Notes: generated by a model from the sequence alone, not told the origin. A stretch of 64,000 nucleotides of DNA from Bacillota bacterium (GCA_017442735.1 JAFRZE010000072.1:185838-249837); one strand, 5' to 3'. Counted from the first letter of the stretch, positions 20,892 through 64,000 are shown. Numbers and translations are program-made.

Positions 20892-20893
20892 CA

Positions 20894-30147: not shown

Positions 30148-30160
30148 CTTTCATCCCTCC

Positions 30161-31252: not shown

Positions 31253-31290
31253 AGATTGCTGTCTCCTTATCCAATCTTTCTAATAAAGAA

Positions 31291-31320
31291 GGACCGGGCT
31301 GCCTAAGCAGCCTGGTCCTC
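31291..31320 (-). terminator. Intercistronic stem-loop between the SPFH and zinc-ribbon genes (attenuator or partial terminator)
   Basis: AGGACCGGGCTGCctaaGCAGCCTGGTCCT 13-bp stem; on the minus strand it is followed by UCUUUAUU. Confidence 0.45.
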
Positions 31321-31336
31321 ACTGGTTTCTGAATGA

Positions 31337-32804: not shown

Positions 32805-32862
32805 TGAGGTTGCAATATCGTTCTATGTTATTCCATTATTATATTCACGGAGGATACAAATC

Positions 32863-34437: not shown

Positions 34438-34492
34438 GTTCAGACAGAACGAAAGAAGATCCAGGCCTATATCGCGAAGCATCAGACAAAGA

Positions 34493-34532
34493 AAGGACTC
34501 GTGAGAAATCATTCCCACGAGTCCTTTTTCGT
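34493..34532. terminator. Rho-independent terminator between convergent gpmI and GH43 genes
   Basis: AAAGGACTCGTG-(loop)-CACGAGTCCTTTTTC. Confidence 0.75.
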
Positions 34533-34558
34533 TGTTGTTGGATGTCTGGCATCCTGTT

Positions 34559-36481: not shown

Positions 36482-36496
36482 GCTGATCCTCCTTAC

Positions 36497-38806
36497 TTAC
36501 AGATCATAACTGCCTGCTTCCAGGCTGAACTTCTGTCCGTCCGGAAGAAAAACTTTTGCCAGGAGCCCTTCCGGGATCTCTATATGATATACTGCCTTCT
36601 TTTCTGTCCCGAAGGCAACTTTTTTATACTGCCAGCCGGATACGATCCTGCCTTTGGGCGAATGATATGTGGCCTTGGCATATCCGAGCGACGGGTCCGG
36701 ATGCGGCCGAATCTCTAGTTCATCATGCCGGTAGCGGATGCCGCAGACGCCTTTGATCAGCCATCCGCTGATAGCGCCGTAGCTGTAATGATTGAGCGAA
36801 TCATGGACCGTCCCGTCTTCCCGGATCCCGTCCCAGGTCTCCCAGATCGTGGTCGCTCCTTTTTCTACCGCGTAAAGCCAGCTCGGACATTCTTCCTGCA
36901 GAAGAAGACGGTAGGCCGTATCCGTATAGCCATGATCCGCCAGAACTTCCGTCAGGAAAGGAGTGGAAAGGAATCCTGTATTCAGATGATATCCGTTTTC
37001 CCTGACCTTTTCATCCAGGTCCGCGGCAGCCTGTCTTTCTTCCACAGCGTTCAGCAGACGGAAAGCGATCGGGCGGACATATTCACACTGTCGCTTACTC
37101 ACGATATGTCCATCCCTAAGTACCAGGTTCCGGTAAGCATTCCTGACCTTATAGCCAAGGTTCGTATACCGCTCTGCATCCTTCTCTTCCCCGAGGATCT
37201 CGGCGATCTTCCCAAGAAGAAGCGCGGAATGCGCGTAATAGGCGGTCGCGACTTCCGGCTGCCCGTGAAGCGAAGCCTGTTTCATGGTCTCCATGACATT
37301 CGCGCCCGGTTCGCTCCATTCACCATAGTCCATTCCTGTATCGATGATATATTTCCGGTAGGGATCTCTGCGGACCAACTCTTTGACGCGGGTCTTCTTT
37401 GCCCGTCTTTCCAGGAAGTCCACCCACTTTTTCATCATTTCATAGTTGTCACGCAGGACTTTTTCATCGCCGTAGACCTCATAGATCGCCCACGGTACCA
37501 GGATGGAAGCGTCTCCCCATCCTACGGAGGCGGAGAACATTTCACTGATCATCCCGGGCTTCCCGTTGATCGGAGCGATATAGGCCATCTTTCCGTCTTG
37601 ATGTTGGCAGAGTCGTACGTTCGCGAGCCACTTCTCCCAGACCTTCCGGCTGTTCATCAGGATCAAACCGGTCGGGGCAAATACACCCGCATCGCCGGTC
37701 CAGCCGGCCCGTTCACGGGTGGGACAGTCCGTAGGAATATCACAGAAGTTGCCTTTCATGCTCCAGATGCTGTTCTTAAACAGCCGGTTCACTTTCGGCT
37801 CGCCGCATTCAAAGAAAGCCGTCTGTTCCATATCCGAATAGACCGCGACCGCTTCTACCCGAATGTTTTCCAGTGACAGATCAGACTCGATCTTCGCGTA
37901 CCGGAAGCCGAACATGGAAAAACGCGGCTGATATACCTGGTCGCCGTCCTTGCAGATATATTCGATCTTCTGCGCGATCCCGCCGGATTTGTTCCGTTCT
38001 CCGGGCTGAAAATTCAGATTTGTGAAGTTACCGTTCTCATCCAGCGTTTCCCCATGGATCAGCGTAACGCGTTCCCCTGCCTTCGCTCCGGTGATGCGAA
38101 GCCTCGTGAATCCAGCCAGGTTCTGTCTGAAATCATAGACATATGACCCGTCCTTTGTCTTGAACAGATATCCTCCCATGATCTCCTTTTCCCGGACAGG
38201 GAGTGTATCCGTCCGGACTAGGGTATCGTATCCGAATCCGGCCTGTTTCAGGCCTTTTGCCGGCTTTGGCGCCTGTGTCAGAACGCTGGCCTTATGCCAC
38301 TTTCTGATCTCTTCTTTCCCGGCGTCATAGGTCTCGCCCAGTTCCAGGTCCGTCAGCAGGATCGGGCCGTCCATCGATCCTTCCCACGACTCATCAGTCA
38401 GACAGATCAGCGCATTTTCCGCATACATCTCCGCCAGCAGGGAAAGATCGGATCCAAAGAGATTCCTGGTCCCGTCGATTCCGTTGCATCCCCGGTACCA
38501 TCCGTCTCCGAGGATCACTTTCATCTCATTTTCACCGGCTTTCAGCAGATGCTGCACCTCATAGACCTGGTACTGCAGACGCTTGTCATATTCATCACAG
38601 CCAGGTGTAAGAACATCTTCGCTGATCTTCTGACCGTTCAGATAAGCTTCATAAAGGCCATGGGCCGTAATAAACAGTTCCGCTTTTTCCGGCACGACCT
38701 CTACCCTAAACTCTTTGCGCAGAAATCCGGCCCCTGGCCTTTGTTCAGGATCGGCCGCCTTTTCTTCCGGCGTGATCCATCGTGCTCTCCACTGATGCTT
38801 GTCCAT
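36497..38806 (-). CDS. alpha-L-rhamnosidase (GH78)
   Basis: ARWITPEE N-terminus, HGLYEAYLNGQKI, six-hairpin catalytic domain motifs; 769 aa, typical size for a bacterial GH78. Confidence 0.8.
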   Translation of the reverse strand: MDKHQWRARWITPEEKAADPEQRPGAGFLRKEFRVEVVPEKAELFITAHGLYEAYLNGQKISEDVLTPGCDEYDKRLQYQVYEVQHLLKAGENEMKVILGDGWYRGCNGIDGTRNLFGSDLSLLAEMYAENALICLTDESWEGSMDGPILLTDLELGETYDAGKEEIRKWHKASVLTQAPKPAKGLKQAGFGYDTLVRTDTLPVREKEIMGGYLFKTKDGSYVYDFRQNLAGFTRLRITGAKAGERVTLIHGETLDENGNFTNLNFQPGERNKSGGIAQKIEYICKDGDQVYQPRFSMFGFRYAKIESDLSLENIRVEAVAVYSDMEQTAFFECGEPKVNRLFKNSIWSMKGNFCDIPTDCPTRERAGWTGDAGVFAPTGLILMNSRKVWEKWLANVRLCQHQDGKMAYIAPINGKPGMISEMFSASVGWGDASILVPWAIYEVYGDEKVLRDNYEMMKKWVDFLERRAKKTRVKELVRRDPYRKYIIDTGMDYGEWSEPGANVMETMKQASLHGQPEVATAYYAHSALLLGKIAEILGEEKDAERYTNLGYKVRNAYRNLVLRDGHIVSKRQCEYVRPIAFRLLNAVEERQAAADLDEKVRENGYHLNTGFLSTPFLTEVLADHGYTDTAYRLLLQEECPSWLYAVEKGATTIWETWDGIREDGTVHDSLNHYSYGAISGWLIKGVCGIRYRHDELEIRPHPDPSLGYAKATYHSPKGRIVSGWQYKKVAFGTEKKAVYHIEIPEGLLAKVFLPDGQKFSLEAGSYDL

Positions 38807-38808
38807 CT

Positions 38809-39657
38809 TCAGATCCTTTCATTCAGCCACTGCCCGCTGATTTCCATACTTTTCAGCGGAGACTTTTCGATCCAGTTTCTGTGTGTCTCCAGGACAGCCG
38901 CCTGTACATCAAGGCTCTTTGCCATCTCCAGAAGCTTCTCCAGCGGCATATTGCCACAACCCAGCTCGACGGAATCTGACTTGATGATCGGCGTCATGAC
39001 CTGCCCGCTGATCCGGCTGCCGCGATCCGTTACATGCCAGAGTGTTACTCGTTTTCCGACTTTTTCCATCAGCCGGACGACATCTATCCCTGCTTCGGCC
39101 GGCCAGTAGGTATCCAGTTCAAAACTAACAAGATCCGGATCCGTATTCGCCAGGATATAGTCATAGGCGGTAAGGTCCTGCCCTTTGATCTTCAGAAACT
39201 CCACATTATGATTGTGATACAGAAGGCTGATTCCCTCTTCCAGAAGCGCTTTGCCGACTGTATTCAGATCATCACAGAGCCCTTGGAGCGTGGTTTCACT
39301 GGTATAATCAAATCGGTACATGCCTGTGATCACGATCCATTCCGTTCCGAAGGATTTCGCTTCTTCCGCCGCTTTCTTCGGGTCTCGTTTCAAAGATCCC
39401 AGATCATAGTGAAGGCTGATCACACTAAGACCTGCTTCGTTTACCAGTTTTTTCCAGTCATAATTCCCGCCCTTACCGGTCGGCATACCGGCCAGTTTTG
39501 TCAGGACACGTACCAGAAAGGAAGTCGGATGGATCTGAAAGCTGTTCAGTTCGATCCCGTCATATCCGGCCGCTTTGATCTTCTTTAATGTCTCTAACGC
39601 AGTCTGCTCGGAACCTGTCACGGTCCCGAGCATGATCTGTTGGATTCCTTTTTTCAT
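38809..39657 (-). CDS. Xylose-isomerase-like TIM-barrel protein (sugar phosphate isomerase/epimerase family) embedded in the glycosidase operon
   Basis: 282 aa; GYDGIELNSF and HNHNVEF metal-site-like motifs. Translationally coupled to GH2 upstream (ATGA) and to GH78 downstream (2-nt gap). Confidence 0.7.
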   Translation of the reverse strand: MKKGIQQIMLGTVTGSEQTALETLKKIKAAGYDGIELNSFQIHPTSFLVRVLTKLAGMPTGKGGNYDWKKLVNEAGLSVISLHYDLGSLKRDPKKAAEEAKSFGTEWIVITGMYRFDYTSETTLQGLCDDLNTVGKALLEEGISLLYHNHNVEFLKIKGQDLTAYDYILANTDPDLVSFELDTYWPAEAGIDVVRLMEKVGKRVTLWHVTDRGSRISGQVMTPIIKSDSVELGCGNMPLEKLLEMAKSLDVQAAVLETHRNWIEKSPLKSMEISGQWLNERI

Positions 39658-41867
39658 TTTTTGATTCCCTGCAGAACTCTGTTGAGTCCTTTGATACTTT
39701 CCTCATCCGCGCCGGCCTGTTTGAGCAGGCTGAGCATGGTCATACGTGCCAGCATACGCTGCAGCGCCGGATTATCCTTCACACTGTCCGCGACATCTCC
39801 GCGGGAAGCCGATGATTTTGCCATCATAGCTTCCACGACTGCTCCGGCCTGCGGATGTGCCCGCAGTTCTCCGAGAGTATCCTGCACGGAGAAGGCTTCC
39901 GGATCAAAATCCGCGTCGAACCAGTTCACGACCTGTGAAGACTTATTGTAGATATAATCGGGATTCGGTTCAGAGGCTTTCCGTACGGTGATTTCATCAG
40001 ACAGATCTTTGCTGACTGCTTTGATCGTATGTTCGCCAAAGATCGGTACGGTAAACTCGAAGACTTTGCTTCCGCTCTTCTTTTCGAATAGTTTTCCGTC
40101 CACATAGAGTGCCACTTCCGACTGATTGGAATAGACCTTGATTTTCGTTTCATTTTCCGCACGGTCCGTATAGCGGCTTCCGCACAGGTGGACGAACGGC
40201 TCGGTCCTGTTCCAGTAGGCTTTATACAGGTAGAAAGCATCCTTCCGGATCTTCCGGTCAAAGGTCACCAGACCTTTCTGGTTCTCGCCGTGCTTGCCAC
40301 CCTCATCCCGTCCGTCAGCCGCGAAGTCGAACATGTTCCAGACATGGGTCGCCCACAGCCACGGCCTCTCTTCGATCATTCGCAGGATATGCTCATGGTA
40401 GACACATTCATATTCTTCCGTGTAATCGCCGCGTTCCGGGCGGGAGGAATGGAAGGCAACATTCGTATCGGCGCCATATTCCGAAAAGCCGATCGCGCGG
40501 TCCGGATATTTCGCGTGGTACTCATCAAAGAACTCGTCATTCTGATCAAGTTCCCCGAGATACCAGCCGAAGTACAGATTGTAGCTGTTCACATCCGGAA
40601 TCTCCAGGATGGGACTGTCGATCTCCAGCATAAACACGTTTGCCATCGTGGTGGGCCGGGTCGGATCCAGACGGTGGCAAAGATCATTCAGCATCCGGTG
40701 GTTATCGAGCAGTTCTTCATTTACGCTGCTGGCAGCCGTGATCTCGTTCGAAAGACCCCAGACCGCGATCGACGGATGGTTGTAGTTCTGTACGATCAGC
40801 TCTTCCATCTGAGAAAGTGTATTCTCGGTGCCGCCGGACATATGCATGGTGATGTACGGGATCTCCGCCCATACGACCATACCCGTCTCATCGCACAGAT
40901 CGTAGAACTCCTGCGCATGCTGGTAGTGGGCCAGACGGATCGTATTCGCTCCGACTTCCCGGATCAGGGCCATGTCTTCCTGATGCTCTTTCAGGCTGAG
41001 TGCGTTGCCGAGTCCCTTACGGTCCTGATGACGGCTCACCCCACGCAGCGGATAGGCTCTTCCATTCAGGAAAAAGCCTTCGCTGTTGATCTCGTAGCTG
41101 CGGCAGCCATAACGGGATGCGATCTCATCGCCGGAGCTTAATGTGACTTTCATCGTGTAAAGATACGGATCTTCGATCCCATCCCACAGGTGGACCGGAT
41201 CCAGATGGAACTGGGCTGTGGCAAAGCCGTCCCCTACCCGGATCGTCTCGCTCTGGCCGGCAGTCTCAAAGGTCGCGTATACGGTCTCATCGCCCTTGTT
41301 TTCCACGTACGCAGTCACCATCACATCACAGGTCTGCTTTTCCAGATCCACTCTGGGTGTGATCCGAAGGCCGCTGGTCCCCATATAGCCCAGTGCAAAA
41401 TGCACGGCCGGGACCTTGATCAGCCGGACGCTCCGGTAGATGCCTCCATAAAAGGTGAAGTCCGCCTTCTGGGGATAGACTGTCTGGTTATCTTCGTTGG
41501 ACACAGCTACCGAAAGCATATGCGCCGCTCCGTCCGCGAAACGGGTCATGTCCGCACGGAACCGGCTGTAACCGCCTTCATGGCGCAGGATCTTCTCTCC
41601 GTCTAAATATAGGTCGCAGCTCATCGCCACGCCGTCGAACTCGAGATAAACTCTGCCGCCTTCTTCCGCAGGCGCCAGGTCTTCCGCGGTCAGTTCACGC
41701 ACGTACCAGCAGATGCCGCGGTAGTAATCATTGCCGCCGTCCTGTCCGTCGACAGCGTTCCAGGTATGCGGAAGGTCCACCGGCTGGGCCTCAATCACTG
41801 CTTCTTTAATCGAAGCGGCGGTCTTTTCAAACCGCCACCCCTGATTCAGATCAAAAATTTTACGCAT
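39654..41867 (-). CDS. Glycoside hydrolase family 2 (beta-galactosidase/beta-glucuronidase-like)
   Basis: Sugar-binding N-terminus DLPHTWN, acid/base WGLSNEI, nucleophile GFSEYGAD; 737 aa. Overlaps the transporter gene by 8 nt. Confidence 0.75.
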   Translation of the reverse strand: MRKIFDLNQGWRFEKTAASIKEAVIEAQPVDLPHTWNAVDGQDGGNDYYRGICWYVRELTAEDLAPAEEGGRVYLEFDGVAMSCDLYLDGEKILRHEGGYSRFRADMTRFADGAAHMLSVAVSNEDNQTVYPQKADFTFYGGIYRSVRLIKVPAVHFALGYMGTSGLRITPRVDLEKQTCDVMVTAYVENKGDETVYATFETAGQSETIRVGDGFATAQFHLDPVHLWDGIEDPYLYTMKVTLSSGDEIASRYGCRSYEINSEGFFLNGRAYPLRGVSRHQDRKGLGNALSLKEHQEDMALIREVGANTIRLAHYQHAQEFYDLCDETGMVVWAEIPYITMHMSGGTENTLSQMEELIVQNYNHPSIAVWGLSNEITAASSVNEELLDNHRMLNDLCHRLDPTRPTTMANVFMLEIDSPILEIPDVNSYNLYFGWYLGELDQNDEFFDEYHAKYPDRAIGFSEYGADTNVAFHSSRPERGDYTEEYECVYHEHILRMIEERPWLWATHVWNMFDFAADGRDEGGKHGENQKGLVTFDRKIRKDAFYLYKAYWNRTEPFVHLCGSRYTDRAENETKIKVYSNQSEVALYVDGKLFEKKSGSKVFEFTVPIFGEHTIKAVSKDLSDEITVRKASEPNPDYIYNKSSQVVNWFDADFDPEAFSVQDTLGELRAHPQAGAVVEAMMAKSSASRGDVADSVKDNPALQRMLARMTMLSLLKQAGADEESIKGLNRVLQGIKK

Positions 41868-43386
41868 TCGCTTCTGCCTCTTTCAATTCCTTCTTTTTCT
41901 CTTCGATCCGTTTCTGGACTTCGACCATTTCCGCCTTATCCAGTTTGCAGCTTCTCATGGCCCACAGGGTGCAGATCCATCCAAGGATCGCCAGGCCGTA
42001 GCGCAGGAACATGGATACCCAGAAAATGCTTCCGGTCGGGGTGTCGCCAGGCTGAGGCAGGGTCTCGGTATAACCGATCAAAGCTACACAGCCGGTCGCG
42101 ATCAGCGCGGAGAAAGAAGAAACGATCTTGTCTACCAGTGAATAGGTGCCGGATACGACAGCCGGGATATACTTGCCGGAACGATCCAGTTCGTAGTCGA
42201 TGACATCAGCCATGAAAGCAGCGCCCGCCGTGGTGCCGGCCATCATGAATCCGTTGCCGACCAGCGTCAGCAGGATGTACAGGATCATAGTGATTCCAAA
42301 ACTTGCAATGGTATGAGTGCCGACAGTATACCATACGACCGCAAAGAACGCAATCATGGCAAGATTGGCGAAGATACAGTTCCTGGCCCAGGTCACGATG
42401 GATTCCTTGTTGCCGTGTTTACCGCAGTAGCGCGCACCGATGATGGCAAAGATGATGGAAGGCAGCATACCGCCCACAGAAAGGTAGGTTGCGATGGTCA
42501 TATTGCCGATCAGGATACCGGAAAGCATGGTGCCCACGATGGCGGCGCCGCCGGCCTGCTGGGCGATCTTGTCGGAAGAAGCCGCGATGATGTAGGACTG
42601 CAGGGGTTTGTTCTTGGAAAGGACGTTCCACATATCCTTGAATTTCAGGCGCTCGTTTGCTTTATTGGTGCCCTTGAAGTTTTCCGGTTTATCATACTGG
42701 GAAACACCGATGCAGCAGAGGATCACGCCCAGAAGGGAAACGACCACGGTCACTGTCGCGGCAGCCGTCAGATAGGCCTGGGAGTAGTTCACGGAGTAGC
42801 CGCCGGCTTCCGTCATGACGATCTGTCCATATTTGGGCAGAAGGACCGTATTCAGGATGATCGTAAAGGCCATGGGAACGATATAGTTAAAGACTGTATT
42901 CCATACGCCGACGGTAGGACGCTGTTTGGGGTCATTAGTGATCAGCGGGCCGATCGTCTGCGCTGTCATATTGACGATCGTATAACCGATGACGTACAGC
43001 ATGTAGGTAGCCAGGAACATCCCGATCCCAAATCCTTTGCTGGCAGCCCAGGAGAACATCAGCATGATGCCAAGCGACTGGACAGCCCAGCCAAGAAGCA
43101 TCAGAGGACGGATCTTTCCAAAGCGGGTATTCACCCGGTCATACAGGAATGCAAGCAGCGGGTCAGTGATCGCGTCAAAGACACGGGTAAAGGTCAGCAG
43201 ACCTCCGACGATCAGGGTGGAAATGCCAAAGCCGATGCTGGCAGCGTAGGAAGCCTGGCCGATCAGCGTGTAGATCGCCATACCGTTCAGGGCATTCATC
43301 GCAACGAGGATGATCTGCCAGAGTTTCGCGCGGCGGTATTCAACACCGTCGATCTGGGACTGAGTAAGTTTGGGTTCTTTCGCCAT
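41860..43386 (-). CDS. MFS transporter, glycoside-pentoside-hexuronide (GPH):cation symporter family
   Basis: 12 TM helices. Long hydrophilic C-terminal coiled segment, as in some GPH members. RBS GAGGAGAAAA. Confidence 0.75.
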   Translation of the reverse strand: MAKEPKLTQSQIDGVEYRRAKLWQIILVAMNALNGMAIYTLIGQASYAASIGFGISTLIVGGLLTFTRVFDAITDPLLAFLYDRVNTRFGKIRPLMLLGWAVQSLGIMLMFSWAASKGFGIGMFLATYMLYVIGYTIVNMTAQTIGPLITNDPKQRPTVGVWNTVFNYIVPMAFTIILNTVLLPKYGQIVMTEAGGYSVNYSQAYLTAAATVTVVVSLLGVILCCIGVSQYDKPENFKGTNKANERLKFKDMWNVLSKNKPLQSYIIAASSDKIAQQAGGAAIVGTMLSGILIGNMTIATYLSVGGMLPSIIFAIIGARYCGKHGNKESIVTWARNCIFANLAMIAFFAVVWYTVGTHTIASFGITMILYILLTLVGNGFMMAGTTAGAAFMADVIDYELDRSGKYIPAVVSGTYSLVDKIVSSFSALIATGCVALIGYTETLPQPGDTPTGSIFWVSMFLRYGLAILGWICTLWAMRSCKLDKAEMVEVQKRIEEKKKELKEAEANA

Positions 43387-43507
43387 GATGTTTTCTCCTC
43401 TTAAAATAGATCACATGAGTAGTAACGGTTTTATTGAGTCCATTATAAAACGTCCTTCTTTTCTATTCGTCCTGTAATTCGCTTTTTTATCCATTTTTTT
43501 CATGCGC

Positions 43508-43536
43508 TTTACAATCATAAGGAATTCGCGTATAAT
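43508..43536 (+). promoter_or_regulatory. Promoter TTTACA-17-TATAAT for the AraC regulator, in a divergent control region
   Basis: TTTACA at 43508-43513, 17-nt spacer, TATAAT at 43531-43536; the ATG is at 43567. Confidence 0.55.
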
Positions 43537-43566
43537 ATCTTTAATAACAGGACAAGGAGAATTGTC

Positions 43567-44796
43567 ATGACAGACCGGGTAAAACTCTTTTTCGAGATGG
43601 TCCGCTGCATCTATCCCATCCATTTCTGGGAATACGATGCAGACCTTTCTCTGCAGACTGCCGATTCCCAGGCGGAACAGTTCGGATCCGATATCATCCG
43701 GCTTCTTTCTATTTCTGATGTACTTAAGCAGCAGTTATTGTCTCAAAAGCGTTGTCCATTTCTACTCGAAACCGGGTACGGGGTTTTATTTCTTTGCGAG
43801 GTCTCCTATGAAGGATCAACCCCGGAAGGCCTGTATCTGTTCGGTGGTTTATATACGGGAAGCACTTCCAACCTGATGATACAACAGAGACTGGCGAACG
43901 CGCCCATCATGGGACGGCTTCGGCAGGAAGTCCTGACCGCGATGCAGCAGCTTCCGATCATTCCAACTTCCACCCTGCTCCAATACGCGGTCATGCTGCA
44001 CTACGCTCTTACCGGAGAAACGATCTCGACTGCTGACATCCTGTCAGTCAGCAGCATGGATGAATCTGCTTTTCCTGATCCAGCTTCTTCATCCCATTTT
44101 CAGGATACCCGCGGCACAGATTCCCATTTTGGCGTATGGGAGTCGGAAAAAGCGCTCCTCCGGATGATCCGAGAGGGAAATCGGGATTATCGAAAAGCTC
44201 TGTCCCGATCCATGAGCCTCAGCTCCGGTGTCCGGGCCGATACAGGTGATCCTGTCCGGCATTCGAAGAATAACAGTCTCACTTTACTGACCCTGGTCGT
44301 ACGCGCAGCGATCGAAGGAGGCTTAAGTCCCGAGATCGCCTATTCCCTGAACGACCACTATGCTGCCATGATCGAGCACGCTCGTTCCATCTCCGCGGTC
44401 ACGATGCTTTCCGGGCAGCTGCTGGATGATTTCATAGAAAGAGTCCATGACGTCCGGGACCGTTCCGGTACCTCCTCCAGCATCCAGAATGCCTGTCACT
44501 ATATCGACACCCATCTTTCCGAACCGCTCACCATCCATGACCTGGCTTCCCAGGCCGGTTATGCCGACTACTATTTCTCCCAGAAATTCAAAAATGAGAC
44601 AGGGCAGACCGTCAGCGAATACCTTTGTGACAAGCGGATCGAAAAAGCGATGGAACTGCTTCGCGATCCGGCAATCGACCTTTCTGACGTCCAGGAAATG
44701 GTAGGGTTCCAGAGCCGAAGCCGTTTCTATGATCTCTTCAAGCAAAAGACGGGGCTTTCGCCCGCTCAGTACCGCGCAAGACCTGTACTGTTTTGA
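43567..44796 (+). CDS. AraC family transcriptional regulator, probable regulator of the divergent glycosidase operon
   Basis: C-terminal AraC HTH (LTIHDLASQAGYADYYFSQKFKNETGQTVSEY...SRFYDLFKQKTGLSPAQYR) with a roughly 300-aa N-terminal sensor domain. RBS AAGGAGAA. Confidence 0.8.
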   Translation: MTDRVKLFFEMVRCIYPIHFWEYDADLSLQTADSQAEQFGSDIIRLLSISDVLKQQLLSQKRCPFLLETGYGVLFLCEVSYEGSTPEGLYLFGGLYTGSTSNLMIQQRLANAPIMGRLRQEVLTAMQQLPIIPTSTLLQYAVMLHYALTGETISTADILSVSSMDESAFPDPASSSHFQDTRGTDSHFGVWESEKALLRMIREGNRDYRKALSRSMSLSSGVRADTGDPVRHSKNNSLTLLTLVVRAAIEGGLSPEIAYSLNDHYAAMIEHARSISAVTMLSGQLLDDFIERVHDVRDRSGTSSSIQNACHYIDTHLSEPLTIHDLASQAGYADYYFSQKFKNETGQTVSEYLCDKRIEKAMELLRDPAIDLSDVQEMVGFQSRSRFYDLFKQKTGLSPAQYRARPVLF

Positions 44797-55590: not shown

Positions 55591-57600
55591 ATGAGATGTC
55601 CATATTGTGGTAATGATGTACCGGATGAGTTCAGATTCTGCAGTCGATGCGGCAATCAGCTTCCGCCTCCCATGATCGTCGATCCCGAACCGCCCAAAAA
55701 GAAAAAGACCGGTCTGATCATCGGTCTTTCCATTGGCGGTGTCATTCTGATCGCCGCGATCGTCCTGGCCGTCCTTTCACTTACCGGAAAGATCGATCTT
55801 TTCAGTTTTCTGCAGAAAGCTCCTGAGATCGAAACCGTCCGGGTCAATCTGAACAATTACCTTTCTGCCGATTTCAGCGGTTTTGATGGTCAGGGAACCT
55901 GCGCTGTCACATTTGATGAGGAATCTTTTGTGAAAGATTTCGCAGGGAAAATCGTCAATACCGAAGAATTTCTGGAAGAATGGAAGGCCAATAAATCGAA
56001 GGATGCTGAAGAAAGCAAGGCGCCGGAGGATAAATGGGTCAAAGCACTTCTCAAGGAGATTTCTTTTGACGCGTCTCCGCTGACGGATCTGAAGAATTCC
56101 GATACCGTAACGATCACCTGGAATTGTAAACCGAAAGAGCTAGAAGAAAAATACAATATTCGTCTAGTCTCCTCCGATACGGTCTTTACCGTCGAGGGAC
56201 TGAGCTCTATCATCGCGATCGATCCCTTTGAAAAAGTTGTCGTTACTTTTGAAGGTATTTCTCCCAATGTAACGGCTTCCTTCGATCTTTCCGGTGTCGA
56301 TGAGGCCTTGAAGAAAACTGTCTATCACCCGGACAAAACAGCCAACCTCAAAAACGGTGATATCATCACCGTCACGATCGAAGACTACGATGAAGAAGCG
56401 ATGAAAGCTGCCTATGGCAAGATCCTTTCCACGACCACCAAGGAGTATGTTGTCGATGTCCCCTCTTCCTATGTCGCGGACGCTTCCGAACTTGCCGGTC
56501 TGGATTATTCCGCTCTGGACATTGCCGCTGAAACATATTTTAACGATTATCGTGAAGACATTGCACTGACGAATTTCACTGTGGACTCTTTTACACGTAC
56601 CAGTTCTTATCTGATGACCTATGCGGGAGATCCTACCTACATTTCTTCCATTTCAGTGAACAATGTACTGCTTGTATTCTATGAAGTGATCCTGTCAACA
56701 GAGCATACGCCTTATGTTCATTCGGATTATCAGGGTACTTATTCTGCCGGTTCTTTGACATATCGGTATCGCTTGTATTACCCCGTATATATCAATAATC
56801 TGACTGTGACCAATGGCAGTCTGGATGTTCCGGTCGAATCCATCTCCAGTTATACCAATCCAGACACTTTCTTCTCTATAGGATATGTCTGCACCGGTAC
56901 CGAAAACGAAGATATCCTTCTGCAATGCATCACCGGACCCAACCCGAACTATCGAACTATCGATCTCGCGACAGGAGAGGTCCTTGAGGCTACTTCCACC
57001 GATGCCTATGACTTCTCCATGCCAGACGATGTCGATTACTATTCAACCCTTCCTACGATCCCGCCGGATGCCGCCGCCATCACACTTCCTTCTGTAAACA
57101 CAGCTCTTCCGGATTCCACGTACTTCTCTGCGGGTACCGCGGATCTGGCTTTCCATGGTTATACGATCACCTATCCGACAGTTGCATTGACTCTCCCGGC
57201 GGAAGTCTTCACCAACACGGATGTCGATGTGATGTATTATTGGGATGATATGGTGCTCTTTGGCATATCGTATGTCAGTTTCGATCTGGCTACGATCGCG
57301 GACAGACACTCAGAGATCCGTGATTGGGCGATCGATTCCCTTGTTGGCGGTGATGGCATATCGTTTGATATCTATCAATACCAGGAAGTTACCAATCCGA
57401 ATGGTGTCCGTATGGATATCGCGCGGGTAAAGGTCCAGGGTAATTCCAATTACCCTGAAGAAGGTGGTACCTTTGCCTTCATCTATGATGACAGTAACAA
57501 GTCTCTCGTCGTCGTATACATCGCTGTTATGAGTCCCTCTGATGATACGTTGGAATATTCCGCTGACTTCGCGGCCATCCTGAATTCCATAAAGAAATAA
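55591..57600 (+). CDS. Zinc-ribbon-anchored single-pass membrane protein with large extracellular domain (YvbJ-like architecture)
   Basis: N-terminal CPYCGN..CSRCGN ribbon, Pro/Lys linker, TM helix LIIGLSIGGVILIAAIVLAVLSL, then about 600 aa extracytoplasmic region. Confidence 0.6.
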   Translation: MRCPYCGNDVPDEFRFCSRCGNQLPPPMIVDPEPPKKKKTGLIIGLSIGGVILIAAIVLAVLSLTGKIDLFSFLQKAPEIETVRVNLNNYLSADFSGFDGQGTCAVTFDEESFVKDFAGKIVNTEEFLEEWKANKSKDAEESKAPEDKWVKALLKEISFDASPLTDLKNSDTVTITWNCKPKELEEKYNIRLVSSDTVFTVEGLSSIIAIDPFEKVVVTFEGISPNVTASFDLSGVDEALKKTVYHPDKTANLKNGDIITVTIEDYDEEAMKAAYGKILSTTTKEYVVDVPSSYVADASELAGLDYSALDIAAETYFNDYREDIALTNFTVDSFTRTSSYLMTYAGDPTYISSISVNNVLLVFYEVILSTEHTPYVHSDYQGTYSAGSLTYRYRLYYPVYINNLTVTNGSLDVPVESISSYTNPDTFFSIGYVCTGTENEDILLQCITGPNPNYRTIDLATGEVLEATSTDAYDFSMPDDVDYYSTLPTIPPDAAAITLPSVNTALPDSTYFSAGTADLAFHGYTITYPTVALTLPAEVFTNTDVDVMYYWDDMVLFGISYVSFDLATIADRHSEIRDWAIDSLVGGDGISFDIYQYQEVTNPNGVRMDIARVKVQGNSNYPEEGGTFAFIYDDSNKSLVVVYIAVMSPSDDTLEYSADFAAILNSIKK

Positions 57601-57628: not shown

Positions 57629-57666
57629 AAAACGGACGATCCGTTATGGACCGTCCGTTTTTTGTC
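57629..57666. terminator. Terminator hairpin between convergent genes
   Basis: AAAACGGACGatccgttatggacCGTCCGTTTTTTG. Confidence 0.7.
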
Positions 57667-57671
57667 TTCTT

Positions 57672-59558
57672 TTATAGATTCTTTCTTTCTTCCTCAATGA
57701 TCCTGGCCGCGAGATTCCCGGAGAGGGATTCCTCCCCGACGGATGAAGGATCCGCGTATTCATCGAAAACGGATTGCTTTTCCATGAGGATTTCCCGGAT
57801 CTTCTCATCGACCGTGTCCTTTGCGTACAGTCTGAAAACAAGTACTTTCTGCACCTGTCCCATCCGATAAGCGCGGGAGATCGCCTGCGTTTCAAGAGAC
57901 GGCTTTATTTGTGGTTCACAGAAAATAACGACACTGGCACTTTGAATATTCAGCCCCATCCCTCCGGAGATGACCTGACAGGGCAGCACATAGGGAATGG
58001 ACTGATCTTCTCCATCCGGTGAGTTCTTTGGGTCTTCTTCCGGGAACGTACCGGCCGCGAAGGCATCCAGAATAGCCTGTCGTTTTGCCGGCGGTACCGA
58101 TCCGTTGATGGGTTCCATTGCAAAGTTCCCGAGGATCTCCCTGACTTTCTCCAGTGTATTTCGAAAGAATGAGAATACGATGACCTTTCGCTTATTGGCT
58201 CCTGCCTCTTCCACGATTTCCCTGAGTCGCAGCGCTTTCACCGACTCTTTCGGATCCTTTTGTTCCCAGGATACCTGTCGCATAGACATGAAATTGCCGG
58301 CCATGACGGATTTTCGGTAATCGTTTCGCTCCTCTTTCGTAAGTTCGACCCAGGCATCTTCCTCGATCAGATCCGGCAGCTCCGTGAGTACATCGTCCCT
58401 TGTACGTCTCAGATAAACCGGAGCAGCTTTCTCGGAAAACTGTGTCGCCTTATCATAAGCGGCCATCTTTCTGAGCTCATCGGCAAATTCCGGCCGGATC
58501 AGCTCGACGAGCTGGCACATTTCATCCACTCTGTTTTCCAGCGGTGTTCCGGTCATCATCAGCGCGTATTCCGCTCGTTTCAGTATCCTCCCCGCCAGTA
58601 TGGTACGCGTTGCCGCCGGGTTCTTGATATAATGCGCTTCATCGATCACGCAGAGATCAAGCAGTTTCTCCGGCTGTGCTTCTTCCGGAGAGACTTCTTC
58701 GATATGCCACAGGGCTGACAGTTTTCCCAGTGACTCGAAATTCGTGACGCCGATCCCGCCTTTTTCCATCCATGGAGCGATATCCTGCTGCATATCCTGA
58801 CCATGAAAGATATACGCAGGGATCTGACAGAACTTTTCCGCTTCCCGCTGCCAGTTGATCAGAACGCTGGCGGGACAGATGACAAGAAACTTATTCCGTC
58901 CCCGGGCGTAAAGGTGTGCGATCAGTCCCAGTGCCTGGATGGTCTTGCCAAGACCCATTTCGTCTCCGAGAAGTGAACGCTTTTCATAAATACTGTACTG
59001 TATGCCGAAAAGCTGGTAGCTTCTGGGCGTTCCTGTAAAATAGCGAAGATCCGCCGGCGTCTCAAGGACGGCCTTTACGATCTCCGCCGGCAGATCGACC
59101 TGCGTCTGCCTTTCATTCTGATAAGGATCGTACTGTTCGATCAGCGCATAGTATTCTGCTCCGTGGATCAGAAAATCATTCCACGCTTCCTCTGTGGTTC
59201 CCTGCTTTCCACTGCGTTCAGAATATAGCGCCTGGATCAATCTGGTATCGAGCGGCGGTCTTCCTTCCGGATCGAGACGGATCGGAACTTCTTTTTTTGC
59301 CTCCGCGATATAGGCTCTGGCCGCGGCTTTGACCTGCCGAACCGTATCGGCTCCCACACCGGGAAGACGCTCCATGGAACGGGGACTGTAGTTATAGGCT
59401 TTTCCTACAGTCGTTATACCGGCGTTTTGTAATGTTGAAAGCCGAAGATTGGGGTTGGCGATCTTCAGCTTTTCGATATTCACTTCATCCAGATAACGGA
59501 CGGCCGCTTCATCCAGCCAGTGATGAAGTGCCGGGGTTATTCCGTATTTATCTGCCAT
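57672..59558 (-). CDS. SNF2-family DNA/RNA helicase (SNF2_N + helicase C-terminal domains)
   Basis: Motif I LGDEMGLGKTIQ, DEAH-like VIDEAHYIKN, motif VI QAISRAYRMGQ. Start reassigned to MADKYG at 59558, which shares one base with the esterase stop (TGATG). Confidence 0.8.
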   Translation of the reverse strand: MADKYGITPALHHWLDEAAVRYLDEVNIEKLKIANPNLRLSTLQNAGITTVGKAYNYSPRSMERLPGVGADTVRQVKAAARAYIAEAKKEVPIRLDPEGRPPLDTRLIQALYSERSGKQGTTEEAWNDFLIHGAEYYALIEQYDPYQNERQTQVDLPAEIVKAVLETPADLRYFTGTPRSYQLFGIQYSIYEKRSLLGDEMGLGKTIQALGLIAHLYARGRNKFLVICPASVLINWQREAEKFCQIPAYIFHGQDMQQDIAPWMEKGGIGVTNFESLGKLSALWHIEEVSPEEAQPEKLLDLCVIDEAHYIKNPAATRTILAGRILKRAEYALMMTGTPLENRVDEMCQLVELIRPEFADELRKMAAYDKATQFSEKAAPVYLRRTRDDVLTELPDLIEEDAWVELTKEERNDYRKSVMAGNFMSMRQVSWEQKDPKESVKALRLREIVEEAGANKRKVIVFSFFRNTLEKVREILGNFAMEPINGSVPPAKRQAILDAFAAGTFPEEDPKNSPDGEDQSIPYVLPCQVISGGMGLNIQSASVVIFCEPQIKPSLETQAISRAYRMGQVQKVLVFRLYAKDTVDEKIREILMEKQSVFDEYADPSSVGEESLSGNLAARIIEEERKNL

Positions 59559-60868
59559 CAGACGTTCAGCTCCTGTACATACGGATCTTCCTTTGTACAG
59601 GGTTTCCACTCCGGAAGATCATCCGCGTTCGGATCACCGGTTTTCATAAAGTTCGTCCAGTATTCCATGATCCGGTCTCTGAGCTGATAATCTCCCTCTT
59701 CCCACGGACGCCAGCATCTGTCCAGAGTATCCATTGTATACCAGAGTTCAGAGGAATGCCAGGCACCCTGATCGTCTCCCGGAAGGTCACGAGTGAACCA
59801 GTAGACAAATGCCGGCTTTCTTCCGATCTCTTCCAGCTTCTGGCTAAACAGCATACTGCCTTTATAGAGCATCGCTTCTCGTTTGTCCTGCATATCGGGC
59901 ATGGCACCGATATCGTCTTTCGTGCTGCCCACCATATACGGAACATCCGCAAATTTCCCTTCATCCATCAGCTGATAATAGCCTTCCGGAAGGACATATC
60001 CGTCGATGATCGGTGCCATGGGAAGCAGCATCCGCCCTTCTTCTTCCCGGATCCGTGCATACATTCTCTGTTCTGTCTCAAGGATCACATCCGCGGGGAT
60101 TTTTCTCATCTCTTCCAGATTGGCGACTCCCAGCATTTCCTGCAGCATCAGGCCATATTTTTCCTGATCCTTCATATACGCGTCCCCGTGCAGGCCGATT
60201 CCGTAGGATCCACCGCTCTGCAGGATCGCGCGGGCGATCTTTCCTTTTGTCAGTGGACTGGAGACGAGGGTCTGAACGCTCATCGCGCCGGCACTTTGCC
60301 CGAAGATCGTGATATTCTCAGGATCTCCGCCGAAAGCTTCGATGTTTTCATAGATCCAGTCAAGCGCCGCGATCTGATCGAGTATTCCGTAGTTCCCTGA
60401 GACACCTGCTTCTTTCGTCAGTTCCGGATGTGCCATAAACCCCAGAACACCCATCCGGTACTCGACGCTTACCAGGATCACACCCCGCTCGGCATAGCCC
60501 GCACCGTCAAACTCTTTTTCTGTACCCCAGCCATGTCCGAAGCCACCGCCGTGGATCCACATAGCGACCGCTGCTTTCTTCGCTTCTTTAGGCGCCCAGA
60601 TATGCAGGAACAGACAATCTTCGCTGGTAGGCGGATTGAAGGAAGGATCATCATAAAAATCCTTATCCCACGGAGGGACCGATCCTTCTGTCTGGACTGC
60701 TTTATTCCGGACAGAAATGGCCTCATATACATTCTCCCATGGTTCATTTTTCACAGGTGCTTTCCACCGAAGGTCTCCGACCGGCGCTTTCGCAAAGGGA
60801 ATCCCCAGATATTTGATATAACTGCCCTGATCGATCCCTTCGATCAGACCGTACTTCGTTTTGACCAT
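59558..60868 (-). CDS. Carboxylesterase type B (para-nitrobenzyl esterase family)
   Basis: FLGIPFAKAP...WIHGGGF...GQSAGA (nucleophile elbow GxSxG). Start at MVKTKYG with RBS GGGGAGGA. Confidence 0.8.
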   Translation of the reverse strand: MVKTKYGLIEGIDQGSYIKYLGIPFAKAPVGDLRWKAPVKNEPWENVYEAISVRNKAVQTEGSVPPWDKDFYDDPSFNPPTSEDCLFLHIWAPKEAKKAAVAMWIHGGGFGHGWGTEKEFDGAGYAERGVILVSVEYRMGVLGFMAHPELTKEAGVSGNYGILDQIAALDWIYENIEAFGGDPENITIFGQSAGAMSVQTLVSSPLTKGKIARAILQSGGSYGIGLHGDAYMKDQEKYGLMLQEMLGVANLEEMRKIPADVILETEQRMYARIREEEGRMLLPMAPIIDGYVLPEGYYQLMDEGKFADVPYMVGSTKDDIGAMPDMQDKREAMLYKGSMLFSQKLEEIGRKPAFVYWFTRDLPGDDQGAWHSSELWYTMDTLDRCWRPWEEGDYQLRDRIMEYWTNFMKTGDPNADDLPEWKPCTKEDPYVQELNV

Positions 60869-60882
60869 ATTCTGATCCTCCC

Positions 60883-62379
60883 CTAATAGTATTCCTTGAT
60901 TCGGTGATACCATATCCTGTCCGGATCACCGGTTTCATTCATCCAGTTTCCAAGCTTGTCCATCAGTTCTTTCTTTTTGTCCTGACAAGCCGGATCATAA
61001 CATCGGTTCTGAAGCTGCCAGGGATCTTCTTCAAGATCATACAGTTCTCCCCGTTCTGATTCATTGAAGGTAAACCAGTATTTACCATCCGTGACCATTC
61101 TTTGCCTTGTATGATAGAAATGGTCGTGGAATTCTCCATAGATCTCCTGATGTCCCACTTCTCCGGTCCCATCGATCACTGGCAGAAGGCTGGTTCCGTC
61201 TACTGGTTTGGGCGGTCTGATGCCGGCGATATCAAGGATCGTCGGCATCACTTCATGCAGGTAGACCATTCCGTCATTTGTTCTTCCCGTATCTCCCAGT
61301 CGATTATTCGCTGGTTTGATGATCATCGGAACGCGGTAGATCTCCTGAAACGCGAAACAGCCTTTCTCGATCAGCTTATGAGCGCCGAGGCAGTCACCGT
61401 GATCCGCTCCATAGATGATGACAGTATCCTCATACAGACCGAGCTCCTTCAGCCTGTCGACGATCAGACCCACCATATCATCGATGAACGTACAGTGTCC
61501 GAAGTATTTGGCGCTGATATCCGCCATGCCTTCCCACCCGTAAGGTCCGTTGCCCCACATTTTCTCGGACAGATAATATCCGTAAGGCTTATCCTCAAAG
61601 GTCTCCCGATAGCTTGGATGTTCCGGGATATCCTTCGGATCATACATACTGAAGTATGGTTCCGGGACGATGGATGGAGAATGCGGACCCCAGAAGTTTG
61701 CCCAGATGAAGAAAGGCTTATCGGATGACGCAGCCTCGTCCAGCTGATGGATGGCTTCCTGCGCGACAAAGTACTCGATCGTACTCTCGATGGGTCCTTC
61801 ATGTTTACAGTACATCTCCTGGATCTGCAGGGCCGGGTTGGCTCCGAGAAATCCGTGAGACACATCGATCCCCTCGTAGCCTTTTTCTTTCAGGTATTCT
61901 TCATAATAGTTCGGCTGATTATCCGGCGGCTGGTCGAAGATCAGGGACGGGAATACGCGGCTGCCGGGGAACCCGTAACCCATGAAGGCTTTTCCGTGAA
62001 ATCCACAGTCTTCCGGTGTTCTTCCCGGAGAGACATGCCACTTGCCCGAATAGCCACAGTAATACCCGGCATCCCTCATAAGCTCGGAAAGCAGGGGTGT
62101 TCCTTCTTTGATATCTGTAAAATTGTCGATCACACCATGCTTATGCGGAAACAGCCCGGTCATGACGCTGGCCCTTGAAGGCGCGCAGATCGCCGAACAG
62201 GTATAGGCGTTTCTCATCACCAGGCCTTCCGCTGCCAGCTGATCGATATGCGGGGTACGGCAGATATCTGCCTGATGGCTAAGTCCGTACCCCGGCATAC
62301 CGGCCTGACGGATCGCTCCGATCGTATCCGGCCGCTGCTGATCGGAAAGGATCAGCAGGACGTTTTTTCGTTTTGACAT
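60883..62379 (-). CDS. Cys-type sulfatase (arylsulfatase family)
   Basis: Signature CAPSRASVMTG (C-x-P-S-R-x-x-x-x-T-G); N-terminal LLILSDQQRPD. Start at MSKRK with RBS AGGTGG 8 nt upstream. Confidence 0.85.
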   Translation of the reverse strand: MSKRKNVLLILSDQQRPDTIGAIRQAGMPGYGLSHQADICRTPHIDQLAAEGLVMRNAYTCSAICAPSRASVMTGLFPHKHGVIDNFTDIKEGTPLLSELMRDAGYYCGYSGKWHVSPGRTPEDCGFHGKAFMGYGFPGSRVFPSLIFDQPPDNQPNYYEEYLKEKGYEGIDVSHGFLGANPALQIQEMYCKHEGPIESTIEYFVAQEAIHQLDEAASSDKPFFIWANFWGPHSPSIVPEPYFSMYDPKDIPEHPSYRETFEDKPYGYYLSEKMWGNGPYGWEGMADISAKYFGHCTFIDDMVGLIVDRLKELGLYEDTVIIYGADHGDCLGAHKLIEKGCFAFQEIYRVPMIIKPANNRLGDTGRTNDGMVYLHEVMPTILDIAGIRPPKPVDGTSLLPVIDGTGEVGHQEIYGEFHDHFYHTRQRMVTDGKYWFTFNESERGELYDLEEDPWQLQNRCYDPACQDKKKELMDKLGNWMNETGDPDRIWYHRIKEYY

Positions 62380-62391
62380 AGTCATTACCAC

Positions 62392-64000
62392 CTAGAACTT
62401 TCTTCTGGATGTTGAACTGACTCGACCCGAACTGGATGTTGAATGGCTGGAATAAGTGCTTCTCGACGAACTGCCGGACGAACTGCGGCTGTTGTCTGAA
62501 CTGCTTTCCCTTGGTTCAATGTACTTACGTTCCACTCTGACTCCAAGTAGTGTATCCAGTTTGTCCCGAACCTGAAAACTGCGCTGGACCAGAAATGCGT
62601 CCAACGAGAGCGTTTCTTTGACAGTCCGGTTCTTCGCTTTCGCGCGGGAAGTCGTGACTGAAGCAACGATCAGTCCACCGATCGAACAGAGGATCAACCA
62701 GAAAATGCGGGTGCCCCAGGAATGAGGAACAAAACCAAATCTCAGAAATCTCCCAAGAAAGCTTAAATACCGATTGACATTGTAATCATAATCTCCACTG
62801 CCCAGGTTCAGCAAGGTGACAGATTCCAGTTGCTTTTCCGCATTTTTCGAAATCGTTTTGGCTCTGGATGTACCTGTCGCTTTCCCGTATCCTCTCACCT
62901 GGATATTATACATAGAGGATTCATCCACAAAGATCCCGATCAGGATCCCGCTGTGGTCTTCACCGAAACCGTACCCGCAGGCTTCCCAGAAGGTATCCAG
63001 ATAGCGGTTGACTCTTTCTTCCCCCGGATCCATATCCGAAGGATAATCTTCGTAAAGACCCTGGGACGGTTTCAGACTGTATGCCTTGTCACTGAGATAC
63101 ACGACGATATCCGTATCATACTTTTCAGCAAGCCGTGCGATCTCCTTTTCGATCCTCTCAGCATCCGCATCGCGGATGCCGTCTATATCGTCAAAAAGCT
63201 TGTCGCTGCGGTAAGCTTCCATATTTTCCCCGGACCTGTAGGCTCTGTACCAGTCCGGAATATCCACGCTGCCGTATTTCAGCAAATTCTCAACACCGTC
63301 AGCCCACTCGGAGAAAGCACCGTAGTAATCTTTATTTACCAGATGATCATACAGAATATCATCCAATCTGGAAGACATGGAATCATTGAATACTGTTCTT
63401 GTCAGGCCAAAAGAGGCAGATACCATTTCCCGGTTATCCGGATCCATGTTGATGAACAGGACCAGCCCGTCGAACTCCGGTCCGATACCATATCCTTTGT
63501 AGACATAGAAATCTTTCGTGAACTCTTCATTATCCATTCCATAGGATGTTACATCCGTATAGATGACGACATCCTGATTCGTTTCTTCGCGAATATCGGC
63601 AAGTCGGGCCTTGATTTCTGTCTCCTCTGCCGGTGTAAGCAGACCCGCCAGATCGATTAGTCTCGGTTCGTTTTCATCATTATGGAAATCAACGAAAGCA
63701 GAAGGATCCGTCACATACCAGGATGGCAGTGCCTGACCGTCGACGATCTGCAGTGTGGCTGGTTCTGAACCTTTCAGAGAAACAAACGTCGTATCGAACG
63801 AAGCCAGATAGCTTTTTGTCTCATTTGCCGGAACACTTTCGGACGACTTGACTATTTCATGGGCACCGGAAAGGAAAGCCGAGACCGCGCCTTCATATCC
63901 TGAGTCATGATAGCCCTGTCTTACAGCTGCTATCAGTTGATCTACATCTTCCTTAAGGAAAATCTCCCAGGCTCTTCCATAAAGTCGGATCGTCAGATTC
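62392..64000 (-). CDS. Multi-TPM-domain membrane protein with Ser-rich C-terminal tail (5' end beyond window)
   Basis: At least two TPM-like units (LTPAEETEIKARLADIREETNQDVVIYT...; DADAERIEKEIARLAEKYDTDIVVYL...). TM helix IFWLILCSIGGLIVASV; SSSGSSSRSTYSSHSTSSSG tail. The reading frame stays open to position 64000. Confidence 0.7.
   Translation of the reverse strand, partial: NLTIRLYGRAWEIFLKEDVDQLIAAVRQGYHDSGYEGAVSAFLSGAHEIVKSSESVPANETKSYLASFDTTFVSLKGSEPATLQIVDGQALPSWYVTDPSAFVDFHNDENEPRLIDLAGLLTPAEETEIKARLADIREETNQDVVIYTDVTSYGMDNEEFTKDFYVYKGYGIGPEFDGLVLFINMDPDNREMVSASFGLTRTVFNDSMSSRLDDILYDHLVNKDYYGAFSEWADGVENLLKYGSVDIPDWYRAYRSGENMEAYRSDKLFDDIDGIRDADAERIEKEIARLAEKYDTDIVVYLSDKAYSLKPSQGLYEDYPSDMDPGEERVNRYLDTFWEACGYGFGEDHSGILIGIFVDESSMYNIQVRGYGKATGTSRAKTISKNAEKQLESVTLLNLGSGDYDYNVNRYLSFLGRFLRFGFVPHSWGTRIFWLILCSIGGLIVASVTTSRAKAKNRTVKETLSLDAFLVQRSFQVRDKLDTLLGVRVERKYIEPRESSSDNSRSSSGSSSRSTYSSHSTSSSGRVSSTSRRKF

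Follow-up and report, generated by a model that had tools for sequence, protein, structure and literature searches.

Close gene spacing in a compact rumen Bacillota genome: a TPM-sulfatase-carboxylesterase-Snf2 string as a probable accretion of unrelated genes

Does the close packing of four dissimilar genes reflect a functional operon, or only the way in which a genome is packed? The question is raised by a 64,000-nucleotide stretch of DNA from an uncultured rumen Bacillota bacterium (GCA_017442735.1 JAFRZE010000072.1:185838-249837), hereafter called the window, in which genes for a membrane protein with TPM domains, a sulfatase, a carboxylesterase and an Snf2-family ATPase follow one another with almost no intervening sequence, the last two sharing a TGATG stop/start. 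An initial annotation had taken this arrangement as a single transcript, related the sulfatase and the esterase to a theme of decorated glycosides, and offered two options for the helicase, an accident of operon fusion or a regulatory link of the RapA type. The comparative evidence described here suggests that the string is most likely an accreted, probably co-transcribed set of unrelated genes. There is good reason to regard the region as the 3' end of a longer same-strand run of unrelated genes showing the ordinary packing of a compact genome, and a meaningful, conserved functional operon of four genes is not supported by the sequence comparisons. The features in question are the following.

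62392..64000, minus strand: 3' 1.6 kb of the gene for a three-TPM-domain protein (frame open to the window end; Pfam)
60883..62379, minus strand: Cys-type S1 sulfatase, 498 amino acids (aa) (Pfam Sulfatase and SGSH_C)
59558..60868, minus strand: type-B carboxylesterase, 436 aa (Pfam COesterase)
57672..59558, minus strand: Snf2-family ATPase of the dsDNA-translocase type, 628 aa (Pfam SNF2-rel_dom and Helicase_C)
59556..59574, minus strand: esterase/Snf2 junction, AGGAG followed by TGATG (direct sequence reading)
57629..57661, strand not assigned: hairpin terminator between the convergent Snf2 and 669-aa zinc-ribbon genes

Open reading frame (ORF) calling shows the four genes in tandem on the minus strand; their junctions were read directly from the sequence. 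The TPM gene stops at TAG 62394-62392 and is followed, after 12 nt, by the sulfatase ATG at 62379, with the Shine-Dalgarno sequence AGGTGG 8 nt upstream; the sulfatase stops at TAG 60885-60883, and after 14 nt the esterase begins at ATG 60868, preceded by GGGGAGG. The esterase stop codon (TGA 59560-59558) shares one base with the Snf2 start codon (ATG 59558-59556), giving a gap of -1 nt within TGATG, and AGGAG is located at 59574-59570, 11 nt 5' of this start. ATG 59558 is preferred over an upstream GTG at 59609 because Snf2 homologs begin at the equivalent Met (alignment A1). The gaps of 12, 14 and -1 nt and the TGATG overlap given in the initial annotation are confirmed by this reading, as are its four gene identities by Pfam. 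GC content is even across the region.

Such spacing is not a special signal in this genome, because 28 of the 38 same-strand neighbor pairs in the window lie ≤25 nt apart, with a median gap of 13 nt and 15 overlapping pairs. The packing of the four genes is the genome norm and does not go beyond chance. Coding density is ~95%, and the commonest junction types are 4-nt and 1-nt overlaps. Another ill-matched tight pair is formed by a uridine kinase gene and, 21 nt later, the gene for the 669-aa zinc-ribbon membrane protein.

Gene order was compared within the clade across five lineages, comprising the window and four relatives designated L010, L009, L004 and L008. L010, whose Snf2 protein is 96% identical to that of the window, has the window order from the sulfatase onwards, its contig beginning inside the sulfatase gene, and the order in L009 (84%) is as in the window. 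In L004 (66-67%), a zinc-ribbon/TPM gene pair is followed by 191 nt, the sulfatase, 145 nt, an extra gene of 269 aa, 396 nt and the esterase-Snf2 genes, and the spacers carry promoter-like sites scoring 10 of 12 together with a terminator-like hairpin. In L008 (GCA_017634575.1; 58%), the sulfatase gene and that for the 269-aa protein lie in inverted orientation, an oxidoreductase gene of the GFO/IDH/MocA type is inserted, neither a zinc-ribbon nor a TPM gene is found on the contig, and the esterase-Snf2 genes stand behind a 333-nt spacer. The four-gene order is kept only at Snf2 identities of ≥84% and is broken at 66% and 58%. For three of its four genes, the unit put forward in the initial annotation does not hold up, since the relatives show promoter-sized spacers, an extra gene, an inversion and a loss, the kind of dispersal that this annotation had itself named as speaking against it. 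Only two sub-units appear to persist, namely the zinc-ribbon/TPM pair and the esterase-Snf2 overlap.

The extra gene sits between the sulfatase and the esterase in both L004 (7488-8297, +) and L008 (6272-7081, -); the two 269-aa proteins are orthologs sharing 46% identity, and nothing corresponding to them is encoded in the window. On the most parsimonious view, a deletion in the lineage of the window, with loss of the 269-aa gene, would have created the 14-nt junction between sulfatase and esterase. No match to the 269-aa protein was found in Pfam or PHROG, and its C-terminal half (…HPDF…ILEHFGK…) looks, by eye, like a PD-(D/E)xK nuclease motif.

The extent of the string can be followed beyond the window on a rumen metagenome scaffold (L001), which was found through the esterase, is identical to the window over the entire compared overlap and encodes the Snf2 protein at 100% identity; its position 6869 corresponds to the window end. 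The TPM reading frame is open to base 63999/64000 and the gene is thus cut by the window end. Upstream of it on L001, the same strand carries three further genes: 13 nt away, one for a zinc-ribbon membrane protein of 352 aa, then ThiF after a gap of 23 nt and an amidohydrolase after another 26 nt, so that the order reads amidohydrolase, ThiF, zinc ribbon, three-TPM protein, sulfatase, carboxylesterase, Snf2 ATPase and terminator; an 87-nt spacer with a hairpin precedes the amidohydrolase gene. If defined by spacing, the operon has at least seven genes. A transcription unit would be bounded on one side by the terminator after Snf2, with no boundary 5' of the TPM gene, where the tight spacing runs on through three more genes. 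Further along the scaffold and outside the window, a perfect sigma-70 promoter (TTGACA-17-TATAAT, L001 1743-1771, +) lies 5' of a GT5 glycogen-synthase-like gene, and a hairpin of 12-18 bp (L001 3471-3510) stands after this gene and before the seven-gene string.

The hairpin at 57629-57661, after the helicase gene, has a 14-bp stem with a free energy of -24.2 kcal/mol (z = -3.5 against shuffles). It probably acts as a terminator in both directions, given the A-run that flanks it at one end and the U-run at the other; its T-run is too short for the consensus terminator scan to have picked it up. Within the cluster, no convincing terminator-like structure was found between genes on the minus strand, apart from one weak 5-bp stem, and promoter-like matches on this strand are not enriched (11, with 7.0 +/- 2.8 expected from shuffles). 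The gaps between the four genes leave no space for intergenic promoters, and co-transcription of the four is plausible. The single transcript of the initial annotation is accordingly retained as plausible on grounds of spacing, the lack of a convincing internal terminator and promoter matches at background level, while its restriction to four genes is not. An Rfam scan found no regulatory RNA in the extended locus, and a repeat search returned only short chance matches. The convergent neighbor on the other side of the hairpin, the 669-aa protein (55591-57600, +), consists of an N-terminal zinc ribbon, one transmembrane (TM) segment and a large domain without family match; its gene is present in L009 and L010 and absent from L004, and is thus variable.

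The junction between esterase and Snf2 persists within the clade. A stop/start overlap is present in all five lineages, as TGATG in the window and L010 and as ATGA in L009, L004 and L008, with GGAG 5' of the Snf2 start in each, and it survives even where everything upstream is rearranged (L008). Outside the clade, the Snf2 context was scanned with one genome per species, yielding 80 loci in which, besides L010, the best identity is ≤49%. None of the 79 loci other than L010 has an esterase gene directly upstream of the helicase; one esterase match lies 6.5 kb away, two weak TPM-like matches lie 4-5 kb downstream, and clustering of all flanking ORFs at these 79 loci yielded no conserved neighbor of any kind. 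The esterase family (~435 aa) is widespread and ~60% identical across Clostridia, and in three contexts homologs at 61-62% identity adjoin MatE/GH42, HIT or GH2 genes. The sulfatase family (~482 aa) is 63-75% identical in Romboutsia, Lachnospiraceae and others, and the three homologs in this range whose contexts were inspected are solitary or stand behind a radical-SAM gene. These three esterase and three sulfatase contexts show no neighbors like those in the string. The comparative evidence favors the fusion accident, one of the two options given in the initial annotation for the helicase.

The helicase is an Snf2-family ATPase. Pfam assigns SNF2-rel_dom (PF00176) at E = 1.2e-34 and 120.2 bits (gathering cut-off 24.9) and Helicase_C (PF00271) at 46.7 bits (cut-off 23.5), and Walker A GLGKT, the DEAH box and the motif VI region QAISRAYRMGQ are invariant in alignment A1. 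The best solved sequence match, among the matches listed (best 60 of 74), is the SsoRad54 core 1Z63, and the 50 fold matches listed for the AlphaFold model (mean pLDDT 77) comprise generic Snf2 motors only, such as those of ISWI, INO80 and Chd1. Compared with the wider family of ~715 aa, the window protein lacks the first ~37 residues and ~75 internal residues (A1). Its N-terminus contains a weak helix-hairpin-helix (HHH_5, E = 0.0038, below its cut-off), and in one relative (P0042) the N-terminal region passes the cut-off of a model resembling the C-terminal domain (CTD) of the RNA polymerase alpha subunit.

The regulatory link suggested in the initial annotation had been modeled on RapA. In E. 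coli, RapA (HepA) is a Swi2/Snf2 ATPase that recycles RNA polymerase (PMC10334767). With the RapA model (NCBIfam NF003426; cut-off 576), the window protein reaches 42.7 bits, only residues 192-339 in lobe 1 being matched, and no RapA structure appears among the sequence matches listed (best 60 of 74) or the 50 fold matches listed; RapA identity is rejected, and the proposed RapA-like link is not supported. Other named assignments were also considered. PADLOC sub-models for DpdE and DrmD match the Snf2 core at E values of ~1e-113 to 1e-115, covering the generic ATPase core only. DrmD was rejected on curated NCBIfam models (74 vs 610 and 67 vs 950 bits) and on its metabolic neighbors, and DpdE on its curated model (54 vs 500 bits); ZorD and the pilus-regulating Snf2 assignment were ruled out by NCBIfam cut-offs. 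A defence island was dismissed, no partner genes being present at the locus or in the 79 related loci, and a mobile element or prophage was dismissed on even GC content, neighboring housekeeping genes of nucleoside salvage and distant phage or plasmid matches (≤44% identity).

Two further observations concern this protein family. An acidic, proline-rich insertion (…GTFPEEDPKNSPDGEDQSIPY…) occupies Snf2 residues ~503-523 (window 58010-58075, -) in ATPase lobe 2; it is clade-specific, absent from the wider family and of low confidence in the model. The wider family itself (loci L011-L089) consists of stand-alone bacterial Snf2 proteins of ~715 aa in Clostridia and Actinomycetota, some on plasmids, with an N-terminal helix-hairpin-helix like that of alpha-CTD, and no published account of it was found in a literature search.

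The sulfatase is predicted to be an S1 formylglycine-dependent enzyme of the Cys type. It matches Pfam PF00884 at E = 2.1e-42 (145.9 bits) in addition to SGSH_C, and its CAPSR sequence lines up with the formylglycine motif in S1 sulfatases of solved structure (CSPSR in 6PT4), which bears out the "Cys-sulfatase" of the initial annotation; CAPSR is kept in L008. No signal or TM segment is detected, pointing to the cytoplasm. No NCBIfam equivalog reaches its cut-off, the best being the arylsulfatase PRK13759 (245 vs 481 bits), and the best PDB relatives are a mixture of carrageenan, choline and aryl sulfatases with phosphonate monoester hydrolases; these comparisons give no assignment to a substrate-defined subfamily. 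An anaerobic sulfatase maturase (TIGR03942, 409.1 bits against a cut-off of 349.45) is encoded at 195-1448 (+), 57 kb from the sulfatase, which is the only one in the window and is probably active. The maturase is a radical-SAM/SPASM enzyme and has, unusually, a SEC-C motif at its C-terminus (Pfam E = 2.2e-10).

The esterase matches Pfam COesterase (PF00135) at E = 1.9e-95 and 321.2 bits, is cytoplasmic in that it has no signal peptide, and has bacterial carboxylesterases and p-nitrobenzyl esterase as its closest solved relatives. All 12 family members in alignment A2 have Ser192 of GQSAG, Asp319 and His371, and these residues align with the catalytic positions of 8WDM, consistent with a type-B carboxylesterase whose triad is intact. 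Its C-terminus has the normal family length (A2).

The partial TPM protein in the window shows two TPM_phosphatase stretches (Pfam, E = 1.4e-22) and the full protein three; the complete gene lies at L001 6498-8477 and encodes 659 aa, so that the "multi-TPM" description stands. A hydrophobic, signal-like stretch near the N-terminus (aa 4-31), one TM segment at aa 552-575 and a tail rich in Ser suggest a secreted, membrane-anchored, extracytoplasmic protein. The zinc-ribbon gene directly upstream (13 nt), kept as a pair with it in L004 and L009, would be the real partner of this gene, and not the sulfatase. Over its full length, the partner protein shares 34% identity (E = 7e-80) with a 363-aa zinc-ribbon protein belonging to a second module elsewhere in the window, which resembles ydjGHI and contains the other TPM gene that the initial annotation had correctly counted. 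In B. subtilis, pspA-ydjGHI is an envelope-stress operon (PMC8581546, PMC9239133). This module and the glycoside cluster discussed below are listed here.

29344-32665, minus strand: second ydjGHI-like envelope module
29344-30147, minus strand: TPM gene of this module
30161-31252, minus strand: zinc-ribbon gene of this module
31337-32665, minus strand: Band_7_1/SPFH gene of this module
34559-44796: glycoside-utilisation cluster with GH43 + F5/8-C, GH78 alpha-L-rhamnosidase, xylose-isomerase-like TIM-barrel, GH2, MFS_2 transporter and divergent AraC regulator

The theme of decorated glycosides is weakened by this context. The rhamnosidase, GH2 and GH43 genes at 34.5-43.4 kb are 15 kb from the string, and between the two stands a block of nucleoside-salvage genes on the other strand (tdk, deoC, PNP, phosphopentomutase, Bmp ABC transporter, pyrimidine-nucleoside phosphorylase and uridine kinase), and homologs of the sulfatase and the esterase occur in unrelated contexts. 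Elsewhere in the window, Pfam gives no match at E ≤ 1e-6 for four sizeable ORFs, of 426, 554, 209 and 592 aa (2168-5109, -; 20268-20897, -; 32845-34623, -).

Taken together, these data are compatible with a history in which the run was assembled from independent modules: an amidohydrolase-ThiF unit, the zinc-ribbon/TPM pair, a solitary sulfatase and the esterase-Snf2 genes. The esterase-Snf2 overlap would be an older, clade-specific fusion in which the helicase probably lost its own 5' end and promoter, as suggested by an N-terminus that is shorter than in the wider family by the first ~37 residues, and after which it would have depended on the esterase transcript. Later, the lineage of the window may have lost the 269-aa gene and the promoter-sized spacers, welding the modules together with gaps of 12-14 nt. 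One or a few long transcripts now probably span the genes by read-through, and Snf2 is probably translated at the TGATG overlap, either by termination-reinitiation or from its own AGGAG. The solitary cytoplasmic sulfatase would be matured by the anaerobic maturase encoded 57 kb away. No common pathway is apparent for one extracytoplasmic protein, two small-molecule hydrolases and one DNA translocase.

Several points weigh against this accretion of unrelated genes. The comparison covers five lineages of one clade, with the order of events given by parsimony on a tree ranked by percent identity; the context samples for the wider families are small, three each for esterase and sulfatase; co-transcription and the absence of internal promoters come from sequence scans only; and retention of the overlap in all five lineages could reflect selection for co-expression rather than just the inseparability of overlapping genes. 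The last point leads to the proposal that translational coupling of esterase and Snf2 is under selection as a means of keeping the two proteins at a fixed ratio and that they act together, for example as an esterase-controlled DNA translocase or a defence-like pair. It would account for an overlap and upstream GGAG that outlast rearrangement of the upstream context in L008, and it draws some encouragement from the strong DpdE/DrmD sub-model matches and from helicase relatives that are carried by some plasmids and present in a few phage records. However, the pairing is absent in 79 other species with this helicase family and in the three esterase contexts, the esterase shows no modification relative to its housekeeping-like family and has a normal C-terminus, the curated defence models are missed by a wide margin (DrmD 74 vs 610, DpdE 54 vs 500) with no defence partner genes nearby, and overlaps of 4 and 1 nt are the commonest junctions in the window. 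Selected coupling of this kind is consequently judged quite unlikely, and the grading of the pair as a functional module in general runs from there into the improbable. It is more doubtful still that the two proteins form a functional unit with the rest of the string incidental, such as an esterase acting on small molecules or deacylating proteins and gating a DNA translocase, or a new defence/DNA-surveillance module.

Another possibility is that there is no operon, each gene or module being served by its own promoter inside the upstream coding sequence and the spacing reflecting compaction only. Several sigma-70-like sites scoring 9 of 12 do lie inside coding sequences on the minus strand, for example at 61021-60994 with a TG extension, ~125 nt 5' of the esterase, and the relatives clearly have separate promoter-sized spacers. 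Such matches nevertheless do not exceed the shuffled expectation, terminator-like structures between the genes are lacking on this strand save for the one weak stem, and the 1-nt overlap makes transcription of Snf2 alone less likely, which leaves separate promoters unlikely. The least probable is an operon of four genes that removes sulfate and acyl decorations from glycosides or glycans with a RapA-like Snf2 factor. Tight spacing, the lack of detected internal terminators and the presence of both the rhamnosidase/GH2/GH43 cluster and the sulfatase maturase within the same 64 kb would fit it, but RapA membership fails, the string runs on past four genes, the TPM protein lies outside the cytoplasm whereas neither hydrolase has a signal peptide, and the glycosidase cluster lies behind the nucleoside-salvage block on the other strand. 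Synteny, with the order lost at helicase identities of 66% and 58%, already largely refutes this operon.

For annotation in general, the case calls for caution, as neighboring genes in compact Bacillota genomes by default lie 10-15 nt apart or overlap in TGATG or ATGA, which is no proof of shared function. Real modules, here the zinc-ribbon/TPM pair and possibly the esterase-Snf2 genes, can be told from accreted strings by synteny at graded distances. In addition, the large stand-alone Snf2 family is uncharacterized and could be miscalled as a defence gene through the PADLOC DrmD/DpdE sub-models, and among gut Clostridia the families of the cytoplasmic sulfatase and of the short esterase are both widespread and well conserved.

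Individual parts of the string resemble known systems to different degrees. With RapA, the window protein has in common the two-lobe Snf2 ATPase core; RapA carries N-terminal domains of its own, whereas the window Snf2 has a weak helix-hairpin-helix domain there. SsoRad54 of Sulfolobus and the ISWI, INO80 and Chd1 motors are its best matches in sequence and fold across both ATPase lobes, but at only 19-25% identity, and the window protein, from the ~715-aa bacterial family, is without chromatin-targeting domains. DrmD of DISARM and DpdE of Dpd are similarly linked to it by strong PADLOC sub-model matches over the ATPase core, but neither drmA/B/C nor dpd partner genes occur here or in the 79 related loci, and the curated scores are far below cut-off. 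The sulfatase shares with clostridial Cys-type sulfatases the CxPxR motif and a radical-SAM/SPASM maturase encoded in the genome, and differs in falling below every equivalog cut-off. The esterase has the GxSxG serine, acid residue and histidine of B. subtilis PnbA, but is ~55 aa shorter, and the aligned acid is Asp where PnbA has Glu.

In B. subtilis, YdjH is a TPM protein. The zinc-ribbon/TPM pair follows the ydjG-ydjH-ydjI pattern of a TFIIB-type zinc-ribbon membrane protein followed by a TPM-domain membrane protein, and the second copy in the window also resembles pspA-ydjGHI in its adjoining Band_7_1 (SPFH) gene. The copy upstream of the sulfatase differs in its three TPM domains, and no PspA or SPFH/Band_7 gene stands next to it at the locus. 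As a whole, the string most resembles the polycistronic strings of unrelated genes in compact Bacillota, with gaps of ≤~25 nt or short overlaps (4-nt ATGA, 1-nt TGATG) that allow translational coupling, Shine-Dalgarno sequences within the upstream gene, one terminator ending the run and an order kept only among close relatives. Nothing essential sets it apart from them, and its esterase-Snf2 junction has outlived the rearrangement of its surroundings.

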